From positions 139,808 through 203,807 of the forward strand of contig JBMORG010000027.1 in the NCBI GenBank assembly GCA_049322355.1: DNA of 64,000 bases, in the 5' to 3' direction. The position numbers and the translations under genes are program-made. Below are positions 8,208 through 64,000 of this stretch, one piece after another. Positions within the stretch are counted from its first letter, which is position 1. Each line of letters begins with the position of its first letter. The notes under the pieces are model-generated. The model did not search any database and had not been told where the DNA came from. It was given only the letters and a program-made list of their open reading frames with translations. Origin of the DNA: Thermodesulfobacteriota bacterium. Its GTDB lineage: Bacteria > Desulfobacterota > Desulfobaccia > Desulfobaccales > 0-14-0-80-60-11.

Positions 8208-8309
8208 GGTCCTTGGACCATGTGCCTTATAAGGAAGAAACTTTTGGCAACGAGTATATTCCTTTACATAATGGGGTCTAACCTTCGAATTGGCAAGGTC
8301 AGCCGTGCC

Positions 8310-10940
8310 CTATTCCCTCTCATCTTGGCTATCCGGACGCCGGGGCAGAGAAAAATAAAAGGTAGCCCCGCCATCGACTTGGCTTTCGGCCCAGATGCGG
8401 CCGCCATGACGCTGGATGATGCGCTGCACCAAGGCCAGCCCCACCCCGGTCCCTTCAAATTTCTCATAGGGGTGCAAACGTTGAAACACTCCAAAGAGCT
8501 TGTGGGCATATTGCATGTCGAACCCCACTCCATTGTCTTTGACGTAATAGATATCTTCCTCTGCGGTGCTTTGGCAGCCCACTTCAATAACCGCAGCATC
8601 CCGGGGACGGGTGAATTTCAGGGCATTTCCCAGGAGATTGATCCAGACCTGGTGCATCAAGGCCCGGTCGGCCCAGGTCTCGGCCAACGGCTTCAGGTCC
8701 CAGTGAACCGTACGGCCCTCCAGGGTTTCATTAAGTTCCCTCACTATGTCTGCAACCTGTTTTTCCATGTCCAGGTCGGCCACCCTCATTTCCAAGCGTC
8801 CCAACCGGGAAAATGCCAGGAGATCATCAATGAGTTGACCCATCTTTTGGGTATTGTCCCTGATAATATTCAGCAACCGCTGCCCTTCCGCATCCAGGTG
8901 CTGGACCTGGTCTTTCAGGAGAAGCCGGGAGAAGCCGTCGATGGCCCGGAGCGGGGCGCGCAGGTCATGGGAGACGGAGTAGGAAAAACTTTCCAGTTCC
9001 CGGTTGGCCGCTTCCAATTGGGCCGTCCGGAGCCGCACCCGCTGTTCCAGTTCTTCATTGAGTTTGATGATCTCTTCTTCGGCCTTTTTCCGGTCTGTGA
9101 CGTCATTGAGGACAAAGACCAGGAAGTCCACCTCCCCCGCTTCATCCAGGATGGGCACCAGGGTCCAATCCCAGTAGGTCACTCCCCACTCCGGGTGATC
9201 GGGAAAGACAAAGGCTTTGGCCACGGCCTGATACGGCGTCTTGGTTTGAACTACCTGGGTGAAGATGGCCCGGTTCTCTTCGTGGGGGTAGAAATCGAAA
9301 TGGTTGCGGCCCGGAAACTCGGAAACGTCGCGGTGACAACCCTGCGCATAAGCCGCATTCACCCGGATGAAGTTGAAGTCCCGGTCCAGGAAGACCAGGG
9401 GGGTAATGGTGTGGGCAAAAAAGGCTTCCAGAATGCGGGTTTGTTCCTTGAGGATTTCTTCGGCCTGTTTCCGTTCAGTAATATCGATGCCCAATTCCAG
9501 GACCAGGGGAGAGCCGTCGCTGTCGGCAAAAGGATAAACATAGGTGCGGTAACTCCGGCCTCCCCGGTGGTGGGTCCACTCCCGCTCCTGTGGTTCTCCG
9601 GTGGTAAGGACTTCAAAGGGCCGGCAGTTCTCACACTGGTCTTGAAATCCATGCATGACCTCAAAACAGGGGCGATCTTCGGGATCGCCGAACCGCTCCC
9701 GGAAAAAGCGGTTGGCAAACTTGATGGAGAAATCCGGGGCCTTCAGATAGACGTAGGCGGGCAGCTCTTCCAGGAGGGACAGGAGGCGCCTGCGTTCCGT
9801 CTCCACGGCCGCCTCCGCACGGCGCAAGGCCGTAACGTCCCGGATCACCCCGATGACCCCCATAGGCCGGCCCTGGGGGTCAGTGATGAGGGAAGCATTA
9901 ATCAATACCGGGACTTCCCGGCGGTCTTTGGTTAAAAGGACGCATTCCAGGTCCCTTTTATAGCCGTGCTCCAGACAGACGTTGAGGCCGGACAGGATTG
10001 TGGCGGTATCCTGGTCAGCCACCAGCGTGGTGGCCAGTCCTCCCACCACTTCCTGGCCCCACCCGAAGTACTGTGTCAGGGCTTTATTGATATGGGTGAT
10101 GCGCCCCCTGAGGTCGGTGATGATCACCCCGTCCAGCATGCCTTCGACGGTTTGGACGGCCATGGTGGCCGCCGCCGCGGCTTCCTGGGCGTGTAAGGCT
10201 GTGGCGGTGCTGGCGCCCAGTTGCCGCACCCCCAGGACGATCCCCGCCACCCCCAACATCCACAAGGCCAGATGACTTAATATTATGGACCAGCTATGCC
10301 AAGTCTCTGCCACAATGGGACCCATGGGGACCGCCACACTGATGCCGCCCCGGATGTCGCCCACCTTGTAACCTTGTTTCGCATGACATTGCAGACAGCT
10401 GGCATCGACCCGGAAAGAGCGCATCAAGCGCATATGAGGCTTGCCGTTTATGGATACTATCTGGCTGACCTCCTCTTTCCCCTGTTCAAAGTCTTCCAGG
10501 GCCTTCTTCTCCCAGGGGTCGGGGGCGTTTTCTGGGCGCAGGGGCTTCAAACTGGTGAGATGGCCCCGGGGCAGGCCTGATTCTTGGGCCAGGGCATAAA
10601 CCTGGCGGGTCATATAAGCCGGGTTGAGCAGAGTCAGCCGACGGCCCGAAGGAGTGGTCAGATCTCTCTCCGGCAGGTGGGCCAGATAGGGAGTGGGAGG
10701 CGAATCAGGGGTGACCGGGACATAAACACCTCCGTGGGCCGCGGCCCAGCGGCGATAGAGCACATCCCGCTCATAGTTGGTCAGGGCGATATGCCGGGCG
10801 ATTTCCATGGCCTCCTGCTCATGATGGAACAGGTTCCAACCCAGCGATGCCGCCGCTACCAGGGTCCATATTCCTATGAGAATCCAGCCGTAAAGTTTTA
10901 CGGGTATGGGGTATACTTTGGTTTTCGAGTCAGTATTCAT
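8310..10940 (-). CDS. Membrane sensor histidine kinase: DUF3365-like CxxCH domain, three PAS, HisKA, HATPase_c
   Basis: N-terminal TM. SCLQCHAKQGYKVGDIRGGISV is a DUF3365/Tll0287-like haem-c motif. Second TM, PAS repeats, H-box FSYSVSHDLRAPL and a G-box GTGVGLALV. Confidence 0.9.
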   Translation of the reverse strand: MNTDSKTKVYPIPVKLYGWILIGIWTLVAAASLGWNLFHHEQEAMEIARHIALTNYERDVLYRRWAAAHGGVYVPVTPDSPPTPYLAHLPERDLTTPSGRRLTLLNPAYMTRQVYALAQESGLPRGHLTSLKPLRPENAPDPWEKKALEDFEQGKEEVSQIVSINGKPHMRLMRSFRVDASCLQCHAKQGYKVGDIRGGISVAVPMGPIVAETWHSWSIILSHLALWMLGVAGIVLGVRQLGASTATALHAQEAAAAATMAVQTVEGMLDGVIITDLRGRITHINKALTQYFGWGQEVVGGLATTLVADQDTATILSGLNVCLEHGYKRDLECVLLTKDRREVPVLINASLITDPQGRPMGVIGVIRDVTALRRAEAAVETERRRLLSLLEELPAYVYLKAPDFSIKFANRFFRERFGDPEDRPCFEVMHGFQDQCENCRPFEVLTTGEPQEREWTHHRGGRSYRTYVYPFADSDGSPLVLELGIDITERKQAEEILKEQTRILEAFFAHTITPLVFLDRDFNFIRVNAAYAQGCHRDVSEFPGRNHFDFYPHEENRAIFTQVVQTKTPYQAVAKAFVFPDHPEWGVTYWDWTLVPILDEAGEVDFLVFVLNDVTDRKKAEEEIIKLNEELEQRVRLRTAQLEAANRELESFSYSVSHDLRAPLRAIDGFSRLLLKDQVQHLDAEGQRLLNIIRDNTQKMGQLIDDLLAFSRLGRLEMRVADLDMEKQVADIVRELNETLEGRTVHWDLKPLAETWADRALMHQVWINLLGNALKFTRPRDAAVIEVGCQSTAEEDIYYVKDNGVGFDMQYAHKLFGVFQRLHPYEKFEGTGVGLALVQRIIQRHGGRIWAESQVDGGATFYFSLPRRPDSQDERE

Positions 10941-11263
10941 ACCGGCTCCATGATGCCAGTGCCTTTGAAAGCCAAAACCGGCGCAAAGTCCGCTACTGCC
11001 CAGCTTGGATTGGTTCCCAGGCCCGGAAGCGATGACGCAATTTATTTTATCACCAAACTAAGCATAACAAAGAATTATAAAATCCGTGGCAAGATTGGTA
11101 AGGTTGACAAAATAAATTCTGGGGGAGGGGGCGGCCAGAAATTGCGGTTTTGAGGGGATTCGGCTATAGTTTTTTCATTCCAAATAGCAGGATTCAAAAA
11201 GTCATGAGATTATGATCGCCTCTTTATCTTTAATAGACTGAAAACAGGATAAAGGTTGGAAAA

Positions 11264-11476
11264 ATGATTAACCTGGAAGAGTTTCGCGCCGGACTATACA
11301 GCGTGCCCTTTTGCTGCGGGGACGAACTCCCGGAATACTGTTTTACCTGCGTCTACCTGTGTTACGATGAGAGGGACGCCTGCCTGTGCAACTCGGGCTC
11401 TACCTACTTCTGCGGCTACTCCTGGCCGGACAAACTGACTCACACTGTACCCCCTTGCCTGCTGGCTCCTGCGTAA
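11264..11476 (+). CDS. Hypothetical small Cys-rich protein (70 aa, 10 Cys)
   Basis: ATG ORF in an otherwise empty 640-bp spacer. Third codon positions are mostly G/C, as in neighbouring real genes. No family recognised and only a weak SD. Confidence 0.3.
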   Translation: MINLEEFRAGLYSVPFCCGDELPEYCFTCVYLCYDERDACLCNSGSTYFCGYSWPDKLTHTVPPCLLAPA

Positions 11477-11582
11477 GCCCCCTTTACCCTGTCGGTTCTT
11501 TCCCTAAGTCGATAGTCCCCGGCCCCGGCTAAGATTTGACAACTACCACCCCTTCATTTATTTTGAGGTCAGGGGAGGATTC

Positions 11583-12107
11583 ATGGATACGACCAAGCGT
11601 TGTCTCATCACTCAAGCAGAAATATCCCAGCGGGTGGCCGAACTGGGAGAGCAGATCGGCAAGGATTATGCCGGTCGGGACCTGGTGATGGTGGGAGTTT
11701 TGAAAGGGGCGTTCATTTTCCTGGCGGACCTGGTGCGGGCCCTGCCTTATCCCGTGGAAGTGGATTTCGTGCGCCTGCGCAGCTATGGAGCTGGCACCAC
11801 CTCCAGCGGCGAAGTCAACATCACCAAAGACGTGGAATCATCCCTTAAAGATCGGGATGTGCTTATCGTGGAAGATATTGTGGATACGGGTATTACTTTG
11901 GCTTTTCTGAGAAACCATTTGGCTACCCACAGGCCCCGTTCCCTCAAGATCTGCTGCTTCATCGACAAAAAGGAGCGCCGGGAAGTGGAAATCCCCTTGG
12001 ATTACGTGGGCTATACTGTAGAAAAGGGTTTTCTGGTGGGCTACGGCCTGGATTGTGGTGAACAAAGCCGCACCTTGCCGGAGATTTTTGTGATTGAAAA
12101 GGATTGA
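11583..12107 (+). CDS. hpt: Hypoxanthine-guanine phosphoribosyltransferase
   Basis: 174 aa. PRPP-binding motif VLIVEDIVDTGITL. GGGGAGGA SD upstream. Confidence 0.95.
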   Translation: MDTTKRCLITQAEISQRVAELGEQIGKDYAGRDLVMVGVLKGAFIFLADLVRALPYPVEVDFVRLRSYGAGTTSSGEVNITKDVESSLKDRDVLIVEDIVDTGITLAFLRNHLATHRPRSLKICCFIDKKERREVEIPLDYVGYTVEKGFLVGYGLDCGEQSRTLPEIFVIEKD

Positions 12108-47817: not shown

Positions 47818-50214
47818 TTACCGGTCAATGTCCGGCATGACGTAATCGATGGAACCGATAATGACGACCAAATCCGACAAGAGGTGGCCCACGGCCATGA
47901 GGGGCAGGGCCTGGACGTTGGCGAATCCCGGGGACCGGATACGCAGACGGTAGGCCATGCTGAGGCCGTCGCTCACCACGTAGAAACCCTGCTCCCCCCG
48001 GGGATGCTCCGTGGCGGCATAGGCTTCGCCCCGGGGAATCTTGGGTCCCCGGGTAACATTGATGAAATGGTGGATCAGGCTTTCAATGTCCTTTAAGGTG
48101 TCTTCTTTCCGGGGGACCGCGTAGCGATAGTCGTCGGTGATGTAGCGCCCCGGAGGCATCCGGTCAGCCGCCTGCCGGATTATCCTGAGACTCTGGCGCA
48201 TCTCCGCCACCCGCACCTGGTAACGGGCATAGGTGTCGCCCTCGCTGGCCGTGGGGATGTCAAACTCAAAGGCTTCATAGGCCGAATAGGGGAACTTTTT
48301 TCGCAAGTCCCATTCCAGGCCGCAGGCCCGGAGGTTAACCCCCGTCACTCCCCAATCCATGGCGTCATCCAGGGAAAGATAACCAACACCCCGGGTCCGG
48401 GCCTCCCAAATGGGGTTGCGGGTGATGGCCTTTTCGAGCTCGTTAAGCTGCCGGGAGAAGCCTTTGATGAAGGCGTCCACCGGCTCTTTCCAGCCCTCCG
48501 GCAAATCCATGGCCACGCCCCCCAACCGGAACCAGGAGGGATGGAGCCGCCCCCCGGTGATCAACTCGACGATGTCCATGATTTTTTCCCGTTCCGCAAA
48601 GGCGTAGAAAGTGGGGGAGATGGCGCCCGTATCCACGGTGTGGGTGGAGAACCACACCAGGTGGTTCGCCAGGCGGAAAAACTCGGTGAGCATCACCCGG
48701 ATGAACTGGGCCCGGTCCGGGACCTTGATGCCCGCCAGGGTTTCCACGGCGTGGAGGTAGCTCAGGTTGTTGGCCACACCGGTCAGATAATCGGCCCGGT
48801 CGGTATAGGGGATGAACTGGTGCCAGGACTGGCGCTCGCCGATTTTTTCCACGGCCCGGTGGTGGTAGCCGATATCGGTGTCCATGGCGGTGATTTCCTC
48901 GCCGTGGAGGGCCAGGATAAACCGGATGAGCCCGTGGGTGCTGGTGTGATGGGGACCGACGTTGAGAATCAGCTCTTTTTCCCCTACCCGCCCCGCCATA
49001 TATTTGCCGGCGTCCAGGGGCTGGTATTTCCGGGCCTCCGCCTGGGTATAAGGGGGCATCCGGGTGGCCCGGTCCGGGTAGCTCTTCCGCAGGGGGTGGC
49101 CCTCCCAGTCGTGGGGCATGAGGAGCCGCCAGAGCCGGGGGTGGCCATCGAAGCGGATGCCGAACATATCAAAGCATTCCCGTTCGTACCAGTTGGCCGA
49201 GGGCCAGATATCGGTAATGCTGCCGGTGACGGGACTTTCTCCGTGCAGGGGCACCTTCAACCGCAGCCGGGAGGGGGGGGCGAAGGAGAGAAGCTGGTAG
49301 ACCAGGGTATAATCCGGGTAAGCCTGCCGCTCCTGCCGAGCGGATTCATCCACCGCGGTGAGGTCATCCAGGCGGCGGAACCGGGGAGACGCCTCGGTCT
49401 TGAGAAACCGCAGCACCTCTTTGACCCGGTCCGGGGCCACCTGGAAGGTGGGCATGTCCGAGGTTTCGGCTGCAGGGGTAACCGCATCACCGAATCTCTC
49501 CTGGAGCGTCTGGGCGAGAGATTTGTCTGTCTCAGTCAGTTCCATGCGGGCCGGGGGCGGGGTCCACATGAGTTCGGAGCGGCTCTCCCAAAACCACGGC
49601 GGGCTCACCGCAGTGCCCCGGGGGGGCGTGCCGTAATAGCCGGGTCCCCGGGGGTCCCGGGATTTGTTGACGCCGTCCACTGCCAGCGGTCTCTGGGTGC
49701 CCTGGGTGCCGCCGGCCAGGTGGAGAATCTTCCGGGTTGGCCGTTCGGATTTAACCTTTTCCTGGAGGAGCACCAGGCCCTGGAGCACCGCTTCGGGCCG
49801 GGGCGGACAGCCGGGAATGTAGATATCCACCGGCAATATCTGGTCCACACCCTGCACCACGCTGTAGCAGTCGTACATCCCACCGCAGTTGGCGCAGGAC
49901 CCCATGGAGATCACCCACTTGGGTTCGGCCATCTGTTCGTAGAGCCGGAGCACCACCGGGGCGATTTTTTTAAAGACCGTGCCGGAGATGATCAGGAGGT
50001 CGGCCTGCCGGGGCGAGCCTCGCAGGACTTCCGCGCCGAACCGGGCCATATCATAGCGGGAGGTCAGCGCGGTGGATTCTTCGATAAAACAGCAGGAGAG
50101 CCCGAAAAACATGGGCCAGAAGCTGTAGGACCGAAACCAGTTGATCAGCCCGTCGATGCGGCCAAGGATCAGGTTTTCGGGCTTATCCGGCGGGGCGGGG
50201 CAGCGGCCCTCCAA
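47818..50214 (-). CDS. nuoBCD: Fused NADH-quinone oxidoreductase subunits B, C and D in one 798-aa polypeptide
   Basis: NuoB: FGLSCCFIE...[13 protein letters not shown]...IPGCPPRPE. NuoC: a central region of about 160 aa. NuoD: [16 protein letters not shown]...to the C-terminus. TTG start 6 nt after GGAGG. Confidence 0.9.
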
Positions 50215-55579: not shown

Positions 55580-56707
55580 ATGAAAGCAAACCCTTTGGTG
55601 AAATTGGGTGCCTTTGGCCAGAGCATCTGGCTGGATTATATCCGCCGGCAAATGATCGACTCCGGGGAACTGAAAAAATTCATCGATGAAGACGGACTTA
55701 AGGGGGTCACCTCCAACCCGGCTATTTTCGAAAAGGCCATTGCCGGGTCCGACGACTACAACCAGGCGATCCGCACCCTGGCTCTAGCGGGCAAGTCCAT
55801 CCAGGAAATTTACCAGGTTCTCACCGTAGAGGACGTGGGCCGGGCCGCAGACCTGTTTCGGCCTCTCCATGACCATTTGCACGGCCAAGACGGTTTCGTC
55901 AGCCTGGAGGTCAACCCCCACCTGGCCCACGACACCCAGGGCACCATTGCCGAGGCCCGGCGCTTGTGGCAGGCCCTTAACCGCCCCAATGTTTTGATCA
56001 AGGTCCCGGCCACCAAAGCCGGACTGCCCGCCATCCGGCAGCTCATCAGTGAGGGCGTCAACGTCAACGTCACCCTGCTTTTCGGCCTGCCCCGCTATAA
56101 GGAGGTGGCGGAGGCCTACCTTTCCGGCCTGGAAGCCCGGGCGGCAACCGGCGCAACCCTGAACCGGGTGGCGTCGGTGGCCAGTTTCTTTTTGAGCCGC
56201 ATCGACGTGCTCCTGGACCCCCAACTTGAGGCCATGGCCGCGGCAGGCGGGGCCAACGCCAAAGGGGCCAAGGAGCTGCAAGGGCAGATTGCCATCGCCA
56301 GCGCCAAAATTGCCTACACCATCTATCAGGAAATCTTCGGGAGCGACCGTTTTAAGAAACTGGCCGCCCAGGGGGCCAGGCCCCAGCGCCTTCTTTGGGC
56401 CAGCACCAGCACCAAAAACCCGGCGTACCCGGACGTCAAGTATGTGGAGCCCCTCATCGGCCCCGAGACCGTGAACACTCTGCCCTTAGAGACCCTGGAG
56501 GCCTACCGGGACCACGGCGACCCCGCCTCCCGCCTCACGGAGGGCGTGGACCGGGCCGCCAGTTACCTGCAACGCCTGCCGGAATTGGGCCTTGACCTCA
56601 ACCAGGCGACCCAGCAGTTGGAAGACGAGGGGGTGGAGAAGTTTAATAAACCCTTTGACTCCCTCATGTGCACTCTGGAGGGCAAGCGCCGGGAGGCCCT
56701 GCCGTGA
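55580..56707 (+). CDS. tal: Transaldolase (about 370-aa type)
   Basis: GQSIWLDYIRR, GVTSNPAIFEKAI and LIKVPAT motifs. Confidence 0.93.
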   Translation: MKANPLVKLGAFGQSIWLDYIRRQMIDSGELKKFIDEDGLKGVTSNPAIFEKAIAGSDDYNQAIRTLALAGKSIQEIYQVLTVEDVGRAADLFRPLHDHLHGQDGFVSLEVNPHLAHDTQGTIAEARRLWQALNRPNVLIKVPATKAGLPAIRQLISEGVNVNVTLLFGLPRYKEVAEAYLSGLEARAATGATLNRVASVASFFLSRIDVLLDPQLEAMAAAGGANAKGAKELQGQIAIASAKIAYTIYQEIFGSDRFKKLAAQGARPQRLLWASTSTKNPAYPDVKYVEPLIGPETVNTLPLETLEAYRDHGDPASRLTEGVDRAASYLQRLPELGLDLNQATQQLEDEGVEKFNKPFDSLMCTLEGKRREALP

Positions 56708-57321
56708 GCGCCACCTCCATTACCCATATCTTTTCGGATATCGGCGGGGTTTTGCTCACCAACGGCTGGGACCGCCACATGCGCCAAGACGCAGCCATAA
56801 GCTTCGGCCTGGACCTGGAGGAATTGAACGACCGGCACAAGATGAGCTTCGACACCTACGAGGAAGGCAAACTCAACCTGGACACCTATCTGAACCAGGT
56901 GGTGTTCCACCAGGAACGGCCCTTCACCCGGGAGGACTTCAAGGAATTCATGTTCGCCCAGTCCAAGCCCAAGGTGGAGATGATCAACCTGGTGAGCACC
57001 CTCAAGTGGAAATACCGCTTGAAGACCGCAGCCATCAGCAACGAAGGGCGGGAGCTGACCATTTATCGGATCAGGAAATTCGACCTCACCGCGCTGTTCG
57101 ATTATTTCGTGTCGTCCTGCTTTGTCCATTTCCGCAAGCCGGACGTGGACATCTACCGCATAGCCCTGGACATCTCCCAGGCGGACCCGGCCCGGTCCGT
57201 CTATATCGATGACCGGGCCCTGTTTGTGGAGATCGCCCAGAGCCTGGGACTCCATGGCATTCATCATACCGACTTTGCGGTCACTCGCCGCAAATTGCAG
57301 GAGCTGGGCCTGGAAGAATAG
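56704..57321 (+). CDS. HAD-superfamily phosphatase, YihX-like motif I (DxGxV)
   Basis: GTG start overlaps the tal stop (GTGA). IFSDIGGVLLTNGWD motif I; ISNEGRE motif II; the YIDD region is motif IV. Confidence 0.75.
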   Translation: MSATSITHIFSDIGGVLLTNGWDRHMRQDAAISFGLDLEELNDRHKMSFDTYEEGKLNLDTYLNQVVFHQERPFTREDFKEFMFAQSKPKVEMINLVSTLKWKYRLKTAAISNEGRELTIYRIRKFDLTALFDYFVSSCFVHFRKPDVDIYRIALDISQADPARSVYIDDRALFVEIAQSLGLHGIHHTDFAVTRRKLQELGLEE

Positions 57322-57375
57322 TCAATGAACGGAACTTATTTCTGCATTAGGCTAAAGGGGGATTAGGGGCAATAC

Positions 57376-57552
57376 GGTTCACTTAAGCGGTTTTTTCTAA
57401 GGAATTAGAGGGCAGGGCCCACCCCGCATTACATTTTCTTGTCATGCTGAGCGCAGCGAAGCATCTCGTGTTTGGAGATTCTTCGGTCGCCTTTGGCTCC
57501 CTCAGAATGACAAGAGAGATAGATTCATAGTTCCTCTCGGGCTTAAGTGAAC
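57376..57552. repeat. Nested palindrome: perfect 12-bp outer arms GTTCACTTAAGC / GCTTAAGTGAAC enclosing family 2 copy c (57439-57513)
   Basis: Inner element ttgtcatgctgagcgcagcgaagcatctc...gagattcttcggtcgcctttggctccctcagaatgacaa. Family-5-like GGGGATTAGGGG / GGGATTAAGGGGATT motifs flank the outer arms. Confidence 0.85.
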
Positions 57553-57719
57553 AGCATTGGGATTAAGGGGATTATCAAACAGTTATTTAATCCCCCCTGC
57601 CCCCCGAGAAAAGGGGGAAATTCTTTTCTGCGGGAATTTCCTTGGCTGATTCAAGATTATGTCTGAATTAGGTTTTGAAAGGGCTGCAGTTTGCAGCGAA
57701 TCTAGGAGTGGAGATCGTT

Positions 57720-59132
57720 ATGAGCAACCAGGATTGTGATATCGGCCTGATCGGCCTGGGGACCATGGGTCGCAATTTTATCCTGAACATGGCGGACCAC
57801 GGTTTTTCCGTGGCTGCGTATAACCGCACCACCGCGAAAACCAAAGAGTTCATGGAAACCGAAGTTGGCCCCCGTAATATCCAGGCCGGTTATGACTTGA
57901 AAGAGTTTGTCGGCCTGCTGAAACCGCCCCGGGCGCTGATTATGCTGGTGGCGGCCGGCGATCCGGTGGATGCAGTGATCCGGGAATTGCTGCCATTGCT
58001 GGAGCCTGGCGACCTGATCATCGACGGCGGCAACTCCCATTTCACCGACACCAACCGGCGGGGCAAATTCCTGACCGGGAAAAACCTGCAATTTATGGGC
58101 ATGGGAATCTCTGGGGGTGAGGCCGGCGCCCGCTATGGCCCCAGCCTGATGCCCGGCGGCTCCCGAGAGATGTACGACCGGGTGGGCCCCATCCTGGAGG
58201 CGGCCGCGGCCCACGTCAACGGCGACCCCTGCGTCACCTATCTCGGGCCGGGCTCCGCCGGCCACTATGTCAAGATGGTCCACAACGGCATCGAATACGG
58301 CATCATGGAACTGATCGTAGAGACCTATGATCTCCTGAAGCGGGGTCTGGGCCTGACGCCGGAGGATTTGGCCACTATCTACGACACCTGGAACCGGGCC
58401 GAGCTTAACTCCTACCTCATGGAGATCACCGCCAAAATCTTTACCCGAAAAGACGACCGGTCCGATAAGTTTTTAGTTGATATGATTCTGGACAAGGCCA
58501 AGCAGAAAGGCACCGGCATGTGGACCTCCTGGGATGCCATGGACCTCCAGGTGGCGACGCCCACCATCGATGTGGCGGTAGTCATGCGGGACCTGTCGGG
58601 CGCTAAGGAGGAGCGCCAAGCTGCGGCCCGGTTCCTGGTGGGGCCTTCCCCCACCTTTACGGGAGATAAGGAGGGCTTCATCGGCCAGTTGCGAAGCGCC
58701 CTCTACGCTTCCATAATCGCCACCTATGCCCAGGGGATGGCCTTGCTCCAGAAGGCTTCCGCCGTCTATGGCTATAACCTGGACCTGGAGGCCGTGGCGC
58801 GTATCTGGCGGGGCGGCTGCATCATCCGGGCGGCCCTTCTGGAGGATATCCGCAACGCCTACAAAGCCAAGCCTGATTTGGCCAATCTTCTCCTGGACCC
58901 TCGCCTGGGCAAGGAATTTCTGAGCCGGCAATCCGACTTGCGGGAAGTGGTGAAAATGGCCGTCACCCTTGGCCTGCCGGCCCCGGCTTTTATGGCGACC
59001 CTGGGATACTTTGACGCTTATCGCAGCGCCGTGCTGCCCGCCAACCTGATCCAGGCCCAACGGGACTTTTTCGGGTCGCACCAATATGAACGCGTCGACA
59101 CCCCCGGCAGTTTTCATACCGAATGGGAGTAG
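57720..59132 (+). CDS. gnd: 6-phosphogluconate dehydrogenase (decarboxylating)
   Basis: ATG 57720 after AGGAGTGGAG. IGLIGLGTMGRN, GGNSHF and MVHNGIEYG motifs. 470 aa. Confidence 0.95.
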   Translation: MSNQDCDIGLIGLGTMGRNFILNMADHGFSVAAYNRTTAKTKEFMETEVGPRNIQAGYDLKEFVGLLKPPRALIMLVAAGDPVDAVIRELLPLLEPGDLIIDGGNSHFTDTNRRGKFLTGKNLQFMGMGISGGEAGARYGPSLMPGGSREMYDRVGPILEAAAAHVNGDPCVTYLGPGSAGHYVKMVHNGIEYGIMELIVETYDLLKRGLGLTPEDLATIYDTWNRAELNSYLMEITAKIFTRKDDRSDKFLVDMILDKAKQKGTGMWTSWDAMDLQVATPTIDVAVVMRDLSGAKEERQAAARFLVGPSPTFTGDKEGFIGQLRSALYASIIATYAQGMALLQKASAVYGYNLDLEAVARIWRGGCIIRAALLEDIRNAYKAKPDLANLLLDPRLGKEFLSRQSDLREVVKMAVTLGLPAPAFMATLGYFDAYRSAVLPANLIQAQRDFFGSHQYERVDTPGSFHTEWE

Positions 59133-59270
59133 TCAGTAGCCAGTAGTCAGTGGTCAAAAAGACTGGGCTTGGGGAGAAAAAGGGAGGGTAGCCAGGGAAT
59201 AATGTTGCAAAATAATGCAAAACGGATTTGAGTTTTTGCTGACTGCTGGCTACTGACCACTGACTACTGC
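59129..59270. repeat. Long inverted repeat of (AGTAGTCAGTGGTC/AGTAGCC) units spanning the gnd-zwf spacer
   Basis: Left arm gtagtcagtagccagtagtcagtggtca (it overlaps the gnd TAG stop). Right arm gctgactgctggctactgaccactgactactgc. About 80 nt lie between the arms. Confidence 0.8.
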
Positions 59271-59286
59271 TTTTTCAGGAGGCCCT

Positions 59287-60840
59287 ATGGGAAGCGATCA
59301 CCGGCCGGACCCCACGATTTTCATCATTTTCGGGGGCGCCGGCGACCTCGCCTGGCGCAAGCTCATTCCTGCCCTCTATAATCTCTACCTGGACCAGTGG
59401 CTGCCGGAGAAATTTCTGATTATCGGCACCGGTCACCGGCATGCCAACGAGGAACAATTTCGCCAACACCTGCGGGAGGGGTTGGACAAATTTTCCCGCC
59501 GGGGCAAAACGTTAGACGATGAATGGCAGCGGTTTGCGGCGCATCTGAATTTTATGGCGGCAGACCTGGACAATCTCGAGGTCTTCGGGGACCTGGCCAA
59601 GAAGCTGGCCGACCAGGACAAAACTTGGGATACCAAGGCCAACCGCATCTTTTATCTAAGTCTGCCCCCCAGCATGATCGACCCCATCGCCCGGGAACTG
59701 GGCAAAGCCAAGCTCAACCTGGATCGCAAGCGCAGCCGCATCGTGGTGGAAAAACCCTTCGGCCATGATTTGGAGTCCGCCCAAAAGCTAAACCGCGACT
59801 TGGGGGAGATCTTTCATGAATCCCAGATTTTTCGTATCGACCACTATCTGGGCAAAGAAACGGTTCAGAATATTTTGGCCTTTCGTTTTGCCAACACCCT
59901 GTTTGAGCCCATCTGGAACCGCCACTACATTGACCATGTGCAGATTACCGTGGCGGAGGCCGAAGGGGTAGGCAGCCGGGCCCATTACTACGACCATGCC
60001 GGGGCCTTGCGGGACATGATCCAGAACCACCTGCTCACCATCATGTGCCTCATTGCCATGGAGCCCCCCATCTCTTTCAGCGACAACGAAGTGCGCAACA
60101 AAAAGGTAGACGTGCTGCGGGCCATCCGGCCCATCCCGCCGGATCAGGTCCACCGCTTCGCGGTGCGGGGGCAATACGGTCCCGGGACCTTGGACGGGGA
60201 AATGGTCAAGGACTACCGCTCCGAAACCGACGTGGCTCCCAATTCTCCCATCGATACCTTTGCCGCGGTGAAACTCGAGGTTGATAATTGGCGCTGGCAG
60301 GGAGTGCCCTTTTACCTGCGCACCGGCAAACGCTTGCCCACCAAGATCTCAGAGGTCTCCATCCAGTTCCGGGGGGTGCCTCATCAGAGCTTCCCGGCAG
60401 CCTCGGTGATGGACTGGCGGCCCAACCGGCTTATCATCGCCATCCAGCCGGAGGAAGGTATCTTTCTGCGGTTTGAGTCCAAGTATCCGGGCCCCACCAT
60501 GCGGTTGTCTCCGGTAATGATGCAATTTTTTTACCGGGAGGCCTTTAAAGTGGCGACGCCGGAGGCCTATGAGACTCTGCTGCTGGACGTGATGTTGGGG
60601 GACGCCACCCTGTTTATGCGGGCCGACCAGACCGAAGTCGCCTGGTCCATTCTCATGCCGATCCTGCAAGTTTGGAACACCATAGCCCCCACGGACTTTC
60701 CCAACTATGCCGCAGGCACCTGGGGGCCTGATGCGGCCGACACCTTGATAGCCCAGGACGGGCGCAATTGGCTGACCCCCACCTTTCTTCAGTGTCAGGG
60801 AGACCAACCCGTCTGCCGGGTGACCATGGTGAAGCCATGA
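59287..60840 (+). CDS. zwf: Glucose-6-phosphate 1-dehydrogenase
   Basis: [22 protein letters not shown] and EKPFG motifs. 517 aa. Confidence 0.96.
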
Positions 60841-61577
60841 TCAAAGTATATCCCGATCTGGAGTCTTTGAGCTATGCGGCGGCCACTTTGTTGGTGGAAC
60901 AGGCCAATCAGGCCGTATCCGCCCGGGGCCGGTTCAGCGTGGCCCTCTCTGGAGGCCATACTCCCCGGCGCACCTATGAATTGCTGACCGCTCCACCCTT
61001 CAAGGATCAGGCTCCCTGGGACCGAATCCATATCTTCTGGGGGGATGAACGCTGCGTGCCCCTGGACGACCCCCGGAGCAACGCCCGCATGGCCAAAGAG
61101 GCTTGGCTGGACCACGTGCCCATTCCTGAAAATCAGATTTACCCTATGGACTGCGCTAAAGCTCCAAGGGAGGCGGCCCTCCAATACGAGGCGGAACTGC
61201 GGGAGTTCTTCACCGGAGGGCCTCCTTACCTTGATCTGGTGTTGTTGGGATTGGGCGACAACGGCCACACCGCCTCGCTGTTTCCGGGCACGCCGGTGCT
61301 GAAGGAAACCCAGCGCTGGGCTGCGGAAGTTTACGTGGCCGAGCAGGATATGTATCGGGTCACTTTGACCGCGCCTTTTATTAATCAGGCGGCGCTGGTG
61401 GCCTTTTTGGTGGCGGGTGAGGCCAAAGCCGGCGTCTTACGGGAAATCCTATATGGCCCCCGGGCCCCGGAACGCCTGCCGGCCCAACTCATCCACCCTC
61501 AAGCCGGTGAACTCTTCTGGTTGACTGACCTTAAAGCTGCGGCTCAGCTAGCGGATAAAAAGAATTACATTGCTTAG
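60837..61577 (+). CDS. pgl: 6-phosphogluconolactonase
   Basis: ATG overlaps the zwf stop (ATGA). [17 protein letters not shown] and [15 protein letters not shown] motifs. Confidence 0.9.
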
Positions 61578-61770
61578 CATGCCAAAACTGACGCTTGCCT
61601 GAAACTCCTGCCAACTAACTTGTATTATTTTCTTTATTTCAATTTATAAATTTATTATAAGATAAAACCATAAACGAGATACTATCTCTCCCGGTTAGAG
61701 GATGATGTTGGGGTCAGGATGATGTATTTTCTTTTTTCCTCCAAATAATAATGGGGCCTGGAGATAGGTC

Positions 61771-63657
61771 ATGGAAGATTTAAATCTTCTCAAAAAAGTT
61801 CCTCTGTTTTCCGATCTCCCTGATCAGGATTTAAAGGTGCTGGCTGAAGTAGGTCACGAAGAGCATTATCCCCAGGACAGTATCATTATCGATGAAGGCG
61901 AGATTAATAATTCCCTATATTTCCTGGTTGCGGGTCAAGTAAAAGTCTGCCTGGAAAAAATTTCTGGAAGACCGGTTACTCTCTCGGTATTAAAAAAGGG
62001 AAGTCTATTCGGAGAGGTTTGCCTAATAGGAAATGAAAGACCATCACCCAAAGTAGTGGCATTAACAGACACTACATTGATACGCTTTGAAAAAAATGAT
62101 TTTCTTCATGGAATAAGTAATGATCCAGTTATTCTAGCTAATATACTGCGAGAAACATGCTTTAGACAAAGTCATAATACTGATAATTTGTTTGATAATG
62201 GAGATGATATTGAGTGTGAAAGTAAGTTACATAAGGAGATATCAATATTTGAAAAAAGATTTGCCATCGAACTGGAAGGGATAAAATTAATCTCAAAAAA
62301 AATTGAAGACATTTCAAATGATACCAGTTCCTATATTAAAGATAAATCTGAAGAAACTATATCATGGGTAGAACAGAGGTCCAAGGAAGCGATTGAATCC
62401 AGCGAAAAAAGGTCCCTGGAAGTCACCGAGCGCGCCGAAAAACAGGCAAGGCTAGCCATTGACTTGGCTGAAAAAACTATTGCTAAAGCCTTAGAAGAGG
62501 CTAACACCCGCACCGAAGCAATGATCTCCCAGATTGAAAAAGCCATCATTTCGACACGGGCTGAAACTGAGGCATCCATTAAAAAAGTGGAGCTATTCTG
62601 GAACAATATTAAGAAAGGAGTAGTTTTATTAAGTTCCGGTCTGGCGATACTTGGATCAATATTGGTATGGCTTGGTTATCCAGAATTTAAGCGCGTTATG
62701 GAAGTAAGGGAAAACATAAAAGAAAATCAAGAATATATTGAAAAAATCAAAAAGAATGTGGAATTAGACTCTTCGCAGTTAAAAGACAAAATGCAAACGT
62801 TTAAAAATCAGTTGGGTGAGTTGGCCGCGCTGAAAGCCATGGTTTTGACTATCGGCAGGATTAGGCATGAATCTCAATTAGGAAGGGATGAGGTAGACAG
62901 TTATAAAAAGGCACATATTACCTATAATGAAAACCGGGAAAAATTGTTAATTTACTTTTCCCCTCCTAGTAGTAATGAGTATCAACCGGAAGTAATTGTA
63001 GAGGCTTTAAATAATTTTTTACATTTGATATATTATTCGAATTTTGATACAATAAAAGAGAAGGAAAAAAATAATATCTTGAGTACTTGTCGGGAAAGTT
63101 TAACGTTAGTAAAAAATAAAGACTTTCGGTACCGTTTAAAAGTGCGTGAAAATCTTATTATTTTTGGTCAAATTCTTAAGAAAAGAAGTCCTGATTTCTA
63201 TAATGATCAGTTTATTCCAACATTTAATAGTATCTTGATAGAAAAAGAAGTTGATGACGATGCAAAATTTACTGTGGCCGAGGTTCTGGCAGCGTTAGGG
63301 GAAGGCAGTGATGAATGCGTTAATTTTTTAGTAAAGTATTTTGAAAAGACTGACAAAAAATGGAGACGGGCTAGCGCTGCTGTAAGCTTGCTTTATCTCA
63401 AAAACCAGAAAGGTCACGATTATCTGTTCAACGAATTGAAACAACCCCACGGAGAGCGGCGCGAAATTGCCGTCCTCACTTTAGGTGAGGCCGTGGCCAA
63501 AAGTGATGCTATAAGTCTTGATGACAATGATCGCAGAATATTATTGCGCCGCATTGAAGAAGAAATAAACCTCGCCCATAACCGGTTTCGAAAGGATTAT
63601 GCGGAGGCCATACTGAAGAAGTTGAAGGAAAAGGAAACTTTACGGAGTGCGAGATAG
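61771..63657 (+). CDS. Hypothetical cNMP-binding-domain protein with coiled-coil, single TM and C-terminal HEAT-like helical repeats; AT-rich, probably horizontally acquired
   Basis: aa 5-125 are a CAP/Crp-type cNMP-binding fold (VPLFSDL..., GSLFGEVCL). aa 150-280 are a charged coiled coil. TM at GVVLLSSGLAILGSILVWLGY (aa 283-303). A second coiled coil follows, and aa about 400-628 are helical repeats. Sampled 60-nt lines are 20-35% G+C, against 60-70% in the flanks. Confidence 0.8.
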   Translation: MEDLNLLKKVPLFSDLPDQDLKVLAEVGHEEHYPQDSIIIDEGEINNSLYFLVAGQVKVCLEKISGRPVTLSVLKKGSLFGEVCLIGNERPSPKVVALTDTTLIRFEKNDFLHGISNDPVILANILRETCFRQSHNTDNLFDNGDDIECESKLHKEISIFEKRFAIELEGIKLISKKIEDISNDTSSYIKDKSEETISWVEQRSKEAIESSEKRSLEVTERAEKQARLAIDLAEKTIAKALEEANTRTEAMISQIEKAIISTRAETEASIKKVELFWNNIKKGVVLLSSGLAILGSILVWLGYPEFKRVMEVRENIKENQEYIEKIKKNVELDSSQLKDKMQTFKNQLGELAALKAMVLTIGRIRHESQLGRDEVDSYKKAHITYNENREKLLIYFSPPSSNEYQPEVIVEALNNFLHLIYYSNFDTIKEKEKNNILSTCRESLTLVKNKDFRYRLKVRENLIIFGQILKKRSPDFYNDQFIPTFNSILIEKEVDDDAKFTVAEVLAALGEGSDECVNFLVKYFEKTDKKWRRASAAVSLLYLKNQKGHDYLFNELKQPHGERREIAVLTLGEAVAKSDAISLDDNDRRILLRRIEEEINLAHNRFRKDYAEAILKKLKEKETLRSAR

Positions 63658-63844
63658 AATTTGCTTCGACTAAGATGCTTGCTTACGATAAGAACCGGCA
63701 ACTTCCGGTTACCGGGGGTGCAGGGTTTTTCCAGATAAAAATGATTCAGGCAGTATTCCCGCCTTGATTTTTGCCCAACACCGGGGGTAAGTTTAACCCT
63801 AACCCCTCAGCCCGCAACTGATAAAAAGAAAAACTGGAGCGCCC

Positions 63845-64000
63845 ATGAAAAAGCTGTCTGCCTCGATTTTATCGGCGGATTTCGGCCGCCTGGCGGAGCA
63901 GGTGAAGGCCGCGGAAGACGCTGGCGTCGATTGGATTCACGTGGATGTCATGGACGGGCATTTCGTCCCCAATATCACCATCGGCCCGGTGGTGACCCAG
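63845..64000 (+). CDS. rpe: Ribulose-phosphate 3-epimerase, N-terminal fragment (continues beyond window)
   Basis: [48 protein letters not shown] is the Rpe N-terminal signature. Confidence 0.9.

Follow-up and report, generated by a model that had tools for sequence, protein, structure and literature searches.

An AT-rich single-gene insertion between pgl and rpe of a Desulfobaccales bacterium encodes a predicted membrane-spanning protein with a cyclic-nucleotide-binding domain and an alpha-solenoid

Why is a cluster of pentose-phosphate genes in a Desulfobaccales genome interrupted by a single gene of deviating composition, and what could the product of this gene do? In the stretch of 64 kb analysed here (the window), the gene order is tkt-rpiB-tal-HAD-gnd-zwf-pgl-[X]-rpe, which places the gene in question, referred to as X, between pgl and rpe, so that X splits the cluster. 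The GC profile delimits an AT-rich island of 2.15 kb (61578 to ~63724), and homology with the empty sites of two relatives (L011 and L012) breaks off there, ending at pgl and restarting at window positions ~63725–63750. As the first-pass annotation had claimed, the island fills the space between the two genes, spanning from the pgl stop codon to a conserved rpe promoter block. The left neighbour is pgl (60837–61577, plus strand; PF01182), which encodes 6-phosphogluconolactonase. The right neighbour is rpe (ribulose-phosphate 3-epimerase), which is cut by the window end and represented by its 5' end (63846–64000, plus strand). This end is 70–76% identical to the N-termini of the ORFs of L012, L013, and L015, and the L012 ORF and its L011 counterpart match PF00834 with an E-value of ~1e-85.

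All parts of the island with an assigned direction are on the plus strand. An AT-rich non-coding leader with the promoter region of X (61578–61770) contains a promoter-like site at 61599–61628, recognized by consensus match only, and the Shine-Dalgarno sequence GGAGA at 61760–61764. The only gene of the island is the 628-aa CDS of X (61771–63657), whose homologues are under purifying selection. It is followed by a 3' non-coding tail (63658–63724) that is not conserved among loci and includes an inverted repeat at 63695–63715. The conserved rpe promoter/leader block (ATTCCCGCCTTGATTTTT...; 63725–63845, plus strand) aligns with positions 9335–9486 of L011 and 8495–8720 of L012, and this alignment marks it as the right-hand boundary, outside the insert.

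A computation of GC content and codon usage, which the first-pass annotation had suggested, revealed a strong deviation by every measure. The X ORF has a GC content of 0.373 and a GC3 of 0.347, compared with a GC content of 0.585 for the remaining window. Its GC content lies at z = -9.6 relative to all 1887-bp windows outside the island, and its GC3 at z = -7.2 relative to 50 other ORFs in the window (0.745 ± 0.055, minimum 0.62). Codons rare in the host account for 24.8% of X, whereas they average 6.5% and reach at most 11.7% across 37 genes of the window, and a CAI-like index is 0.40 for X versus 0.66 ± 0.04 (z = -5.9). The compositional outlier is confined to 61578–63724. Thus, the sharply bounded, AT-rich, single-gene nature of the island that had been proposed is confirmed by these values. 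The proposed fall in GC is also real, but the figure of 20–35% given for the island was slightly too low (0.27 to 0.49 in 200-nt windows), and pgl, with a GC content of 0.59 rather than 60–70% and a GC3 of 0.66, has native composition.

A synteny comparison with relatives, another of the checks that had been proposed, shows that pgl adjoins rpe in two of them and that X was found between these genes in none of the six related Desulfobaccales loci compared, whose zwf genes are 82–88% identical to that of the window. Both L011, where 83 bp separate the two genes, and L012 have an empty pgl–rpe site. The site holds DUF1003 and cupin genes in L013 and L014, and genes for a GT2, an LPG-synthase TM protein, and a GNAT in L015. 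In L019, other genes lie 3' of pgl, with no rpe within reach. It is therefore well supported that the gap between pgl and rpe is a variable spot and that X is a horizontally acquired accessory insertion consisting of a single gene.

X is not unique to this genome. Its close family comprises ~13 clusters among 5.8 billion proteins, with 12 full-length homologues at 44–67% identity in addition to P0015. The ORF is intact in all close members (603–629 aa), and many of the homologues are located on short contigs. Literature searches for this architecture returned no description, and the whole architecture is covered by no curated family, in agreement with the initial impression that no known family has it. 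A profile search with the C-terminal region against the 5.8-billion-protein index (with a word prefilter) yielded known members only. A metagenome scan with the family alignment gave 600 candidates, including two irrelevant matches to cyclic-nucleotide-binding (CNB) domains, and back-translated patterns were unspecific. That X belongs to a rare, uncharacterised family is thus well supported.

Close-subfamily members are known only as single genes that are AT-rich and rich in rare codons, in GC-rich genomes. They occur in five housekeeping contexts that are unrelated to one another, namely pgl|X|rpe, glgB|X, hsp20-lon|X, xerC|X|ABM-HD, and rex|X|uvrA. The four contexts other than that of the window are represented by L002, L003/L005, L008/L009, and L093, where L008 and L009 were counted once, as probably the same locus, in view of their complementary contig ends and similar 3' flanks. 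In all five contexts, the GC content of the gene is 0.37–0.42, compared with 0.54–0.59 for the flanks. Two of the five are assignable to Desulfobaccales, and the Lon protein encoded beside X in L003 shares 98% identity with its counterpart in a Desulfobaccales MAG. Alignment of the upstream and downstream regions revealed that the loci share the CDS and its ribosome-binding site only (GGAG(G/A), located 6–7 nt 5' of the ATG, was the sole conserved upstream element in the seven loci compared), and there is therefore no shared regulatory element or att-like end. The distant relatives with the X architecture number a few dozen. They are 500–630 aa in length and contain a CNB domain, one transmembrane (TM) segment, and a homologous C-terminal region, and they show native composition (0.35/0.38 in L095, 0.435/0.42 in L096, and 0.66/0.69 in L097). 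No conserved partner gene was seen near the distant relatives, whose contigs are short or whose neighbours are unrelated. These features are consistent with an origin of X in a lower-GC lineage and a subsequent spread within Desulfobaccales.

The mode of evolution of X bears on how long it has been resident. The dN/dS values of its homologues (0.10–0.27) indicate purifying selection, and the sequence evidence gives good support to the view that X is a functional gene. Within the lon-linked clade, X and its neighbours have equal dS (0.30 for X and 0.18–0.34 for the neighbours), whereas the dN of X is 0.081 versus 0.019 for Lon, the X protein evolving ~4 times faster. Polarised synonymous changes in X are near balance (50 W>S versus 39 S>W), and the implied equilibrium GC3 is 0.52, compared with 0.70–0.80 for the neighbours (p = 7e-4 to 9e-9). 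X is not drifting towards host composition. Bacterial mutation in general is reportedly AT-biased.

These data also lend themselves to a different history, in which an early ancestor of the Desulfobaccales gained X a single time, most lineages later lost it, and rearrangement moved it to other places. Its weak expression would have let it escape the selective pressure or biased gene conversion by which host genes stay GC-rich. Such a history would fit the two contexts in Desulfobaccales, the similar flank GC in all five hosts, the co-divergence of X with its flanks at equal dS in the lon-linked clade, and the low equilibrium GC3 with its near-balanced changes. Because X evolves ~4 times faster than Lon, an identity of 44–67% could also reflect divergence within the order. 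However, five flanking contexts that have the CDS alone in common resemble insertion rather than rearrangement, and the pgl–rpe site is empty or otherwise filled in relatives that are close by their zwf identity. Outgroup relatives of native low GC also exist, as expected under a foreign origin. We therefore consider an ancient residence unlikely and favour the acquisition of X as a foreign, functional gene.

What the acquired gene encodes can be read in part from its domains. The N-terminal domain (aa 1–135; 61771–62175, plus strand) is a CAP-type CNB domain, as had been noted at first sight. Pfam cNMP_binding (PF00027) matches aa 31–115 with an E-value of 2e-18 (66.5 bits versus a cut-off of 27.5), and the PDB matches are the CNB domains of PKG, PKA-R, and CRP, with E-values down to 1e-18. 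The canonical phosphate-binding cassette of such domains, G-E...R-[ST]-A, interacts with the 2'-OH of the ribose and with the cyclic phosphate. The cassette of X (FGEVCLIGNERPSPKVVA, aa 80–97; 62008–62061, plus strand) is indeed atypical. In the alignment to PKG, Gly81 and Glu82 are kept, and Pro91 occupies the position of the phosphate-binding Arg. Arg90, one residue before, is present in 9 of the 12 subfamily members and replaced by K, T, or a gap in the rest, and the S-P-K of the cassette is nearly invariant among them. Since the canonical Arg is Pro and the neighbouring Arg is missing in 3 of the 12, cyclic-nucleotide binding by X is uncertain. The database label 'CRP/FNR family transcriptional regulator' attached to two homologues (P0004 and P0010) is wrong, as there is no HTH and the C-terminal half consists of the TM segment and the solenoid. 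Pfam gives no match of X to HTH_Crp_2 or Crp, and NCBIfam CRP-type models match only aa ~2–137, far below their cut-offs.

The remaining domains follow the order proposed by the first-pass annotation (CNB domain, coil, TM helix, coil, helical repeats), and the first coil is a hendecad rather than a heptad coil. This predicted cytoplasmic stalk (11/3 hendecad, aa 150–282; 62218–62616, plus strand) contains the invariant motif SIFEKRF..ELE.IK and is modelled by AF2, with low pLDDT, as part of a continuous helix (aa 150–300). Its hydrophobicity spectrum peaks at 3.65 residues, with a power of 129 versus 14 at 3.5. The predicted TM helix (VVLLSSGLAILGSILVWLGYP, aa 284–304; 62620–62682, plus strand) is the sole strongly hydrophobic segment of 19–21 aa (mean Kyte-Doolittle value of 2.2 over 19 aa), and every close relative retains it, as do nearly all of the distant relatives that were inspected. 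Its N-side flank is slightly more positive than the other. Next comes a predicted heptad coiled coil (aa 306–368; 62686–62874, plus strand), which is helical over this range in the AF2 model and has a periodicity peak at 3.5 residues. Two weak matches were judged to reflect coiled-coil composition: that to ATP-synt_B is not significant (E = 0.12 in Pfam and 0.94 in NCBIfam), and that to ZorA in PADLOC (E = 0.011) was not taken as homology.

The C-terminal region (aa 385–628; 62923–63654, plus strand), which had been described as helical repeats, is confidently modelled as an alpha-solenoid of the ARM/HEAT fold. In the AF2 model, where confidence is low over aa 1–380, aa ~385–628 form an all-alpha structure of 12 helices with pLDDT values of 70–92. 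Foldseek searches of the PDB retrieved designed ARM proteins, alphaRep, and importin-alpha, the matching entries including 5mfh, 4hxt, 3tj3, and alphaRep (E = 2e-4 to 1e-3, probability 1.0). Use of the full-length model as the query kept the TM-scores low. The match of X to Pfam HEAT_2 (PF13646) is sub-threshold (E = 0.022, 15.5 bits versus 27.7), and the distant relative P0031 matches the same model above threshold, at 28.1 bits.

From the architecture alone, we propose with low confidence that X is a ligand-gated, membrane-spanning scaffold. The protein would probably dimerise, as is usual for CNB proteins and for proteins with long coiled coils. An N-in/C-out topology is suggested by the lone TM segment, by the slightly higher positive charge on its N-terminal side, and by the absence of a signal peptide, with the CNB domain and the hendecad stalk in the cytoplasm and the heptad coil and the solenoid across the membrane. 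The ligand may be a cyclic nucleotide, or a small molecule of another kind in view of the cassette Arg being displaced or missing. When bound to the CNB domain, it would alter how the highly conserved stalk packs or rotates, and the TM helix would relay this alteration to the solenoid. As there is no enzymatic or DNA-binding output domain, the output would have to be a protein–protein interaction or a perturbation of the membrane, and the solenoid, which carries no catalytic signature, may work by binding an envelope partner or releasing it. Such 'inside-out' signalling from a cytoplasmic sensor to an extracytoplasmic HEAT-like solenoid has no characterised bacterial precedent in the literature searched. 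To our knowledge, no bacterial CNB domain signals across the membrane to a non-enzymatic scaffold. The acquisition of a foreign functional gene is the well-supported part of our reading and the scaffold its tentative part, and the two taken together appear to us about evenly poised.

The first-pass annotation had also raised the possibility that X is an orphan effector of Pycsar-type antiphage signalling. Pycsar systems protect against phages by a cell death that cCMP or cUMP triggers. A Pycsar system consists of a genome-linked cyclase (the class-III-like pyrimidine cyclase PycC) and a CNB receptor (PMC11224242). In this scenario, X would serve as an orphan effector of abortive infection or conflict. 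The CNB domain would bind a nucleotide signal that originates elsewhere (the product of a distant host cyclase, housekeeping cAMP or cGMP, or a phage product), and the resulting oligomerisation through the coiled coils would lead the TM helices to perturb the membrane in the manner proposed for PycTM. The AT-rich, rare-codon CDS would hold the basal expression of a toxic protein low. Several features favour this idea: the CNB domain matches the CNB part of the PADLOC PycTIR models, although this part only (E = 4e-9), the combination of CNB and TM segments is the logic of PycTM (PMC11224242), the distribution is patchy and at variable sites with X evolving faster than its neighbours (dN of 0.081 versus 0.019 for Lon), and the gene shows no amelioration of its strong AT-richness, 25% of its codons being rare in the host.

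However, no cyclase was found beside X in the window, L002, L003/L005, L008/L009, or L093, and the PADLOC PycTM model gave no match to X, nor did any effector model beyond the CNB domain. The neighbourhoods consist of housekeeping genes, none of them a defence island, and the phosphate-binding cassette is degenerate. Moreover, the ~320 aa of conserved coil and solenoid past the single TM helix would be needless for a simple pore-former. In keeping with the initial observation that no cyclase, integrase, tRNA, or direct repeats are visible nearby, no cyclase or integrase is present among the 30 largest ORFs of the window, and the tRNA scan detected no tRNA in its 64 kb. The search for flanking repeats, whether direct or inverted, and for target-site duplications or inverted termini gave nothing above chance. 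An Rfam search of 56000–64000 gave sub-threshold chance matches only, IMG/VR loci, PHROGs, BFVD folds, and GenBank phages contained no phage link of X, and plasmid records matched X via the generic CNB domain only. Neither the repeats, tRNA, and integrase searches nor the locus ends yielded a mobility signature that would account for the movement of the bare gene. Because a cyclase, an integrase, a tRNA, flanking repeats, and phage or plasmid links are all absent from these searches, Pycsar membership is not supported, and we regard an orphan effector as slightly less likely again than an ancient residence. A combined version, in which X is a self-contained, cyclase-less membrane effector of conflict that is triggered by a ligand and moves as a bare single gene between Desulfobaccales genomes and whose AT-richness is selected as an expression throttle or a silencing target, appears improbable, although selected AT-richness would account for the GC3 of ~0.35–0.46 in hosts at 0.75 and for the balanced W>S and S>W changes. 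Finally, the foreign composition, the single insert, and the many homologues on short contigs could suggest that X has no current function, being either left over from a phage, plasmid, or integrative element or a pseudogene in decay, but the intact ORFs of 603–629 aa in all members, the dN/dS of 0.10–0.27, the absence of PHROG, BFVD, IMG/VR, or phage-record matches and of plasmid matches other than via the generic CNB domain, and the lack of an integrase, tRNA, or flanking repeat make this highly improbable. X is probably an accessory signalling protein and not a recognisable phage-defence system.

Should the architecture function as we propose, a cytoplasmic small-molecule signal would reach a non-enzymatic scaffold across the bacterial membrane. 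The X family also provides a clean natural case for asking why some acquired genes keep their foreign composition in the long term and do not ameliorate, as it allows comparisons of one gene between several host contexts and with relatives of native composition. In addition, X should not be counted as Pycsar in censuses of defence systems.

Among known systems, CNB domains of the PKG, PKA-R, and CRP types share sequence and fold family with X, which retains the Gly-Glu of the cassette, but X has R-P-S-P-K where they have R-[ST]-A, and it lacks their kinase, HTH, or channel output. Pycsar receptors likewise fuse a CNB sensor to a non-enzymatic membrane segment (PycTM) or an effector. However, Pycsar has a linked cyclase (PMC11224242), whereas X has no neighbouring cyclase in its five contexts, and X differs from these receptors in possessing one TM helix in mid-protein, followed by 320 aa of coiled coil and solenoid. 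The cassette Arg described as 'highly conserved' among CNB proteins (R97 of PsPycTIR; PMC11224242) is displaced or absent in X and its close homologues. The PBS-lyase/HEAT_2 repeats (PF13646) have the alpha-solenoid fold seen in X, which remains below the threshold of their profile, and P0014, a TLC-transporter-CNB-HEAT_2 protein, combines a CNB domain with HEAT-like repeats as X does, although its membrane part is a multi-pass ATP/ADP translocase and that of X a single TM helix. The b subunit of F-type ATP synthase resembles X in having a single membrane anchor and a long hendecad helix, but its orientation and domain order differ, and the resemblance is one of helix type only. The distant relatives of X (P0018, P0019, P0025, P0029–31, P0035, P0127, and P0130) share with it the order of the CNB domain, the helical stalk, the single TM helix ending in [FW]LGY, the coil, and the homologous solenoid. 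These relatives have a canonical P-R-S-A-T cassette, shorter stalks, and native composition (GC content of 0.35 to 0.66), and X differs from them in all three respects.

The 628-aa CDS X (61771-63657, plus strand) is a functional single-gene insertion of foreign composition and belongs to a rare, unannotated family. Its neighbours are housekeeping genes: the nuo operon and ubiA are followed by tkt-rpiB-tal-HAD-gnd-zwf-pgl-X-rpe, and X therefore interrupts a complete pentose-phosphate cluster between pgl and rpe, as the first-pass annotation had claimed. For comparison of the site, Desulfobaccales MAGs were collected by a genome scan with Zwf (82–88% identity). None of those examined carries an X homologue downstream of pgl, and the pgl–rpe intergenic spot (61578-63845 in the window) is variable across Desulfobaccales. 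The spot is empty in L011 (9295-9376), where pgl and rpe are neighbours 83 bp apart, as the proposed synteny check had asked. The same spot is filled by approximately 400 bp of palindromic sequence in L012 (8137-8535), by DUF1003 (minus strand) and cupin genes with GC lowered to 0.47–0.53 in L013 (9277-11235) and L014 (2560-4486), and by GT2, LPG-synthase-TM and GNAT genes in L015 (6520-9624); L019 also has content other than X after pgl. The L012 spacer includes two G/C-rich palindromic elements (8280-8480; CCCTCTCCC...GGGGGAGAGGG type) with a REP- or MITE-like look.

Three Desulfobaccales genomes have in common a conserved block ahead of rpe (ATTCCCGCCTTGATTTTT ... AAACTGGAGCGCCCATG; 63725-63845 in the window, where it starts at ~63725-63750; 9335-9430 in L011; 8495-8615 in L012), which probably serves rpe as promoter and leader. 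In L011, only ~40 bp separate this block from the pgl stop codon. The conservation of the block and the empty sites in relatives therefore define the insert as 61578 to ~63724, with pgl on one side and the rpe promoter on the other, both intact. Searches for repeats, tRNAs and ORFs bore out the remark that no such landmarks are nearby: flanking repeats of the insert do not exceed chance, the 64-kb window contains no tRNA, its 30 largest ORFs include no integrase, and Rfam gave no hit above threshold over 56000-64000. Two details of the surrounding genes were also recorded. Read from its longest ORF (TTG at 60768), pgl shares 73 nt with zwf; in a Logan contig the gene is called from ATG 60837, with a 4-nt overlap (ATGA) with the zwf stop codon, which suggests translational coupling. 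A single 798-aa ORF (47818-50214, minus strand) has NuoB (Oxidored_q6), NuoC (30 kDa) and NuoD (49 kDa) domains and would be a fused NuoBCD subunit of the complex I operon.

The region of X is a true compositional outlier, and sliding-window GC and codon usage both agree with the sharp AT-rich island described earlier. X has a GC of 0.373 and a GC3 of 0.347 versus a GC of 0.585 for the other 61.5 kb, where every 1-kb bin is at least 0.50. The GC of X has a z-score of -9.6 against all 1887-bp windows outside the island, and its GC3 has a z-score of -7.2 against the 50 other ORFs (0.745 ± 0.055). Host-rare codons make up 24.8% of X versus a mean of 6.5% (maximum 11.7%) in window genes, and the CAI-like index is 0.40 versus 0.66 ± 0.04. 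G+C is depleted at each of codon positions 1, 2 and 3, and the protein is enriched in Lys, Glu, Asn and Ile. Outside the island, the lowest 1-kb bin (0.51) lies at 11001-12107, which includes a 174-aa ORF (11583-12107) with the lowest GC3 of the native ORFs (0.62); a second, smaller dip (0.47–0.51 at 57200-57800) lies over the 353-bp intergenic region (57322-57674) upstream of gnd.

A set of 5.8 billion clustered proteins yielded only 12 full-length X homologues (44–67% identity). When 1.84 billion representatives were searched exhaustively with a profile, P0015 joined them, together with a few dozen remoter proteins (500–630 aa) whose parts follow the same order. Literature text searches yielded no description of this architecture, in line with the first-pass annotation, which had recognised no such family. 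The close subfamily occupies five unrelated contexts: pgl-X-rpe (the window), glgB-X-abhydrolase (L002), hsp20-lon-X (L003, L005, L010 and one JGI contig), xerC-hslVU-X-ABM-HD (L009 plus L008, probably one locus) and rex-X-uvrA (L093). These loci share only the CDS and its Shine-Dalgarno sequence. Assignment to Desulfobaccales was possible for two of the five contexts; in L003, the Lon encoded beside X matches the Lon of a Desulfobaccales MAG at 98% identity, and therefore the window clade and the lon-linked clade, two of the most divergent, live in one order. At every close locus X has a GC of 0.37–0.42 and a GC3 of 0.34–0.46 between flanks of 0.54–0.59, with similar GC profiles along the gene. 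The distant relatives are native in composition (gene/host GC of 0.35/0.38 in L095, 0.435/0.42 in L096 and 0.66/0.69 in L097); AT-richness is thus no inherent property of the family, and there are donors of lower GC. Very short contigs (L004, L010, L094, L095, L096 and several of 1.7–3 kb from JGI/ENA) carry many of the family members and end just beyond the gene, consistent with assembly breaks at a sharp change in composition. P0016 (299 aa, on an 11-kb JGI contig) comprises only the post-TM part (profile positions 330–625, 64% identical to X); the copy may have been truncated or split.

In the lon-linked clade, the dS of X (0.30) equals that of its neighbours (0.18–0.34), and X was therefore inherited together with them. 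X is under purifying selection, with a dN/dS of 0.27 in this clade and 0.10–0.22 in other pairs (0.06 for Lon). In this clade X is directly followed by a gene (L003 11962-12462; L005 11941-12471) for a 166/176-aa hypothetical protein with no Pfam match; this gene has a lowered GC of 0.50–0.54 and a dN/dS of 0.64, is missing in the P0010 contig and may represent a second accessory gene that evolves fast. Substitutions polarised among the L003, L005 and L010 alleles of X are nearly balanced (113 W>S versus 102 S>W at all sites; 50 versus 39 at strictly synonymous third positions) and imply an equilibrium GC3 of ~0.52 (present value, 0.46). A host-like equilibrium of 0.70–0.80 was rejected (p = 7e-4 to 9e-9; X alleles alone). 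Therefore, the foreign composition is stable on the time scale of these alleles. In bacteria, mutation is biased towards AT, and it is selection or biased gene conversion that keeps composition GC-rich. The plain explanation is that a weakly expressed accessory gene escapes these forces and stays AT-rich; alternatively, selection may favour rare codons or an AT-rich silencer target. The one feature without an explanation is that foreign composition has persisted throughout the subfamily.

Pfam, AF2 and hydrophobicity analyses found the anatomy previously proposed for X to be accurate. Pfam places a CNB domain at aa 31–115 (E = 2e-18) and no other domain above threshold (HEAT_2, E = 0.022). NCBIfam and PADLOC matches are confined to the CNB part, and PDB sequence matches are to the CNB domains of PKG, PKA-R and CRP. 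The cassette is indeed atypical: Pro91 aligns with the phosphate-binding Arg of PKG, and an Arg lies one residue earlier in nine of the 12 subfamily members (the others have K, T or a gap), followed by a nearly invariant S-P-K. Distant relatives keep the canonical P-R-S-A-T. The cassette Gly, Glu and Arg are highly conserved among CNB proteins (PMC11224242). Since X keeps the ribose-binding Gly-Glu with a displaced Arg, cyclic-nucleotide binding is plausible, not assured.

The AF2 model, built with an 11-sequence family alignment, has helices at aa 150–300 and 306–368 (confidence is low over aa 1–380). Of the two coiled coils said to flank the TM helix, aa 306–368 is a heptad coil (hydrophobicity peak at 3.5 residues), whereas aa 150–282 is a hendecad (11/3) stalk (peak at 3.65, almost no power at 3.5). 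Nowhere is the protein more conserved than at the start of the stalk (SIFEKRF..ELE.IK..K.IE), which suggests a specific interaction or signal-transmitting role rather than a mere spacer. The sole strongly hydrophobic stretch (aa 284–304; 19–21 aa, Kyte-Doolittle mean 2.2), usually ending in [FW]LGY, is kept in all close and nearly all distant relatives examined. Positive charge is slightly higher on its N-side flank and there is no signal peptide, from which an N-in/C-out topology is predicted. An all-alpha solenoid is modelled confidently at aa 385–628 (pLDDT 70–92); its matches to designed armadillo proteins, alphaRep and importin-alpha (E ~2e-4) amount to generic ARM/HEAT similarity.

X would be a dimeric, single-pass membrane protein with the CNB sensor and hendecad stalk in the cytoplasm and the heptad coil and ARM/HEAT-like solenoid outside. 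It has no catalytic or DNA-binding module, so its output would have to be partner binding or membrane perturbation. We tentatively favour a ligand-gated transmembrane scaffold as a possible mechanism. Ranked second, and unlikely, is an orphan Pycsar-like effector, which would share the CNB domain; the scaffold is preferred because ~320 conserved residues follow the TM helix, none of the five contexts contains a cyclase or known defence genes, and the cassette is degenerate. A CRP/FNR regulator is ruled out by the absence of an HTH domain.

A Pycsar system needs a cyclase linked to a receptor of the PycTM or PycTIR type (PMC11224242). X resembles these systems in its CNB domain only and differs in cyclase linkage and effector type, and the antiphage reading raised earlier is thus not supported. 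No phage, plasmid or viral-structure relative was found in the collections searched. The solenoid is ARM/HEAT-like in fold, although below the HEAT_2 sequence threshold. P0014 (1080 aa, JGI), in which a TLC ATP/ADP translocase is combined with a CNB domain and HEAT_2 repeats, is another membrane protein that pairs CNB with HEAT-like repeats. The insertion that carries X holds a single gene and is of an ordinary kind, if unusually clean, and X itself fits best among the CNB-domain signalling proteins, as a new variant in architecture.
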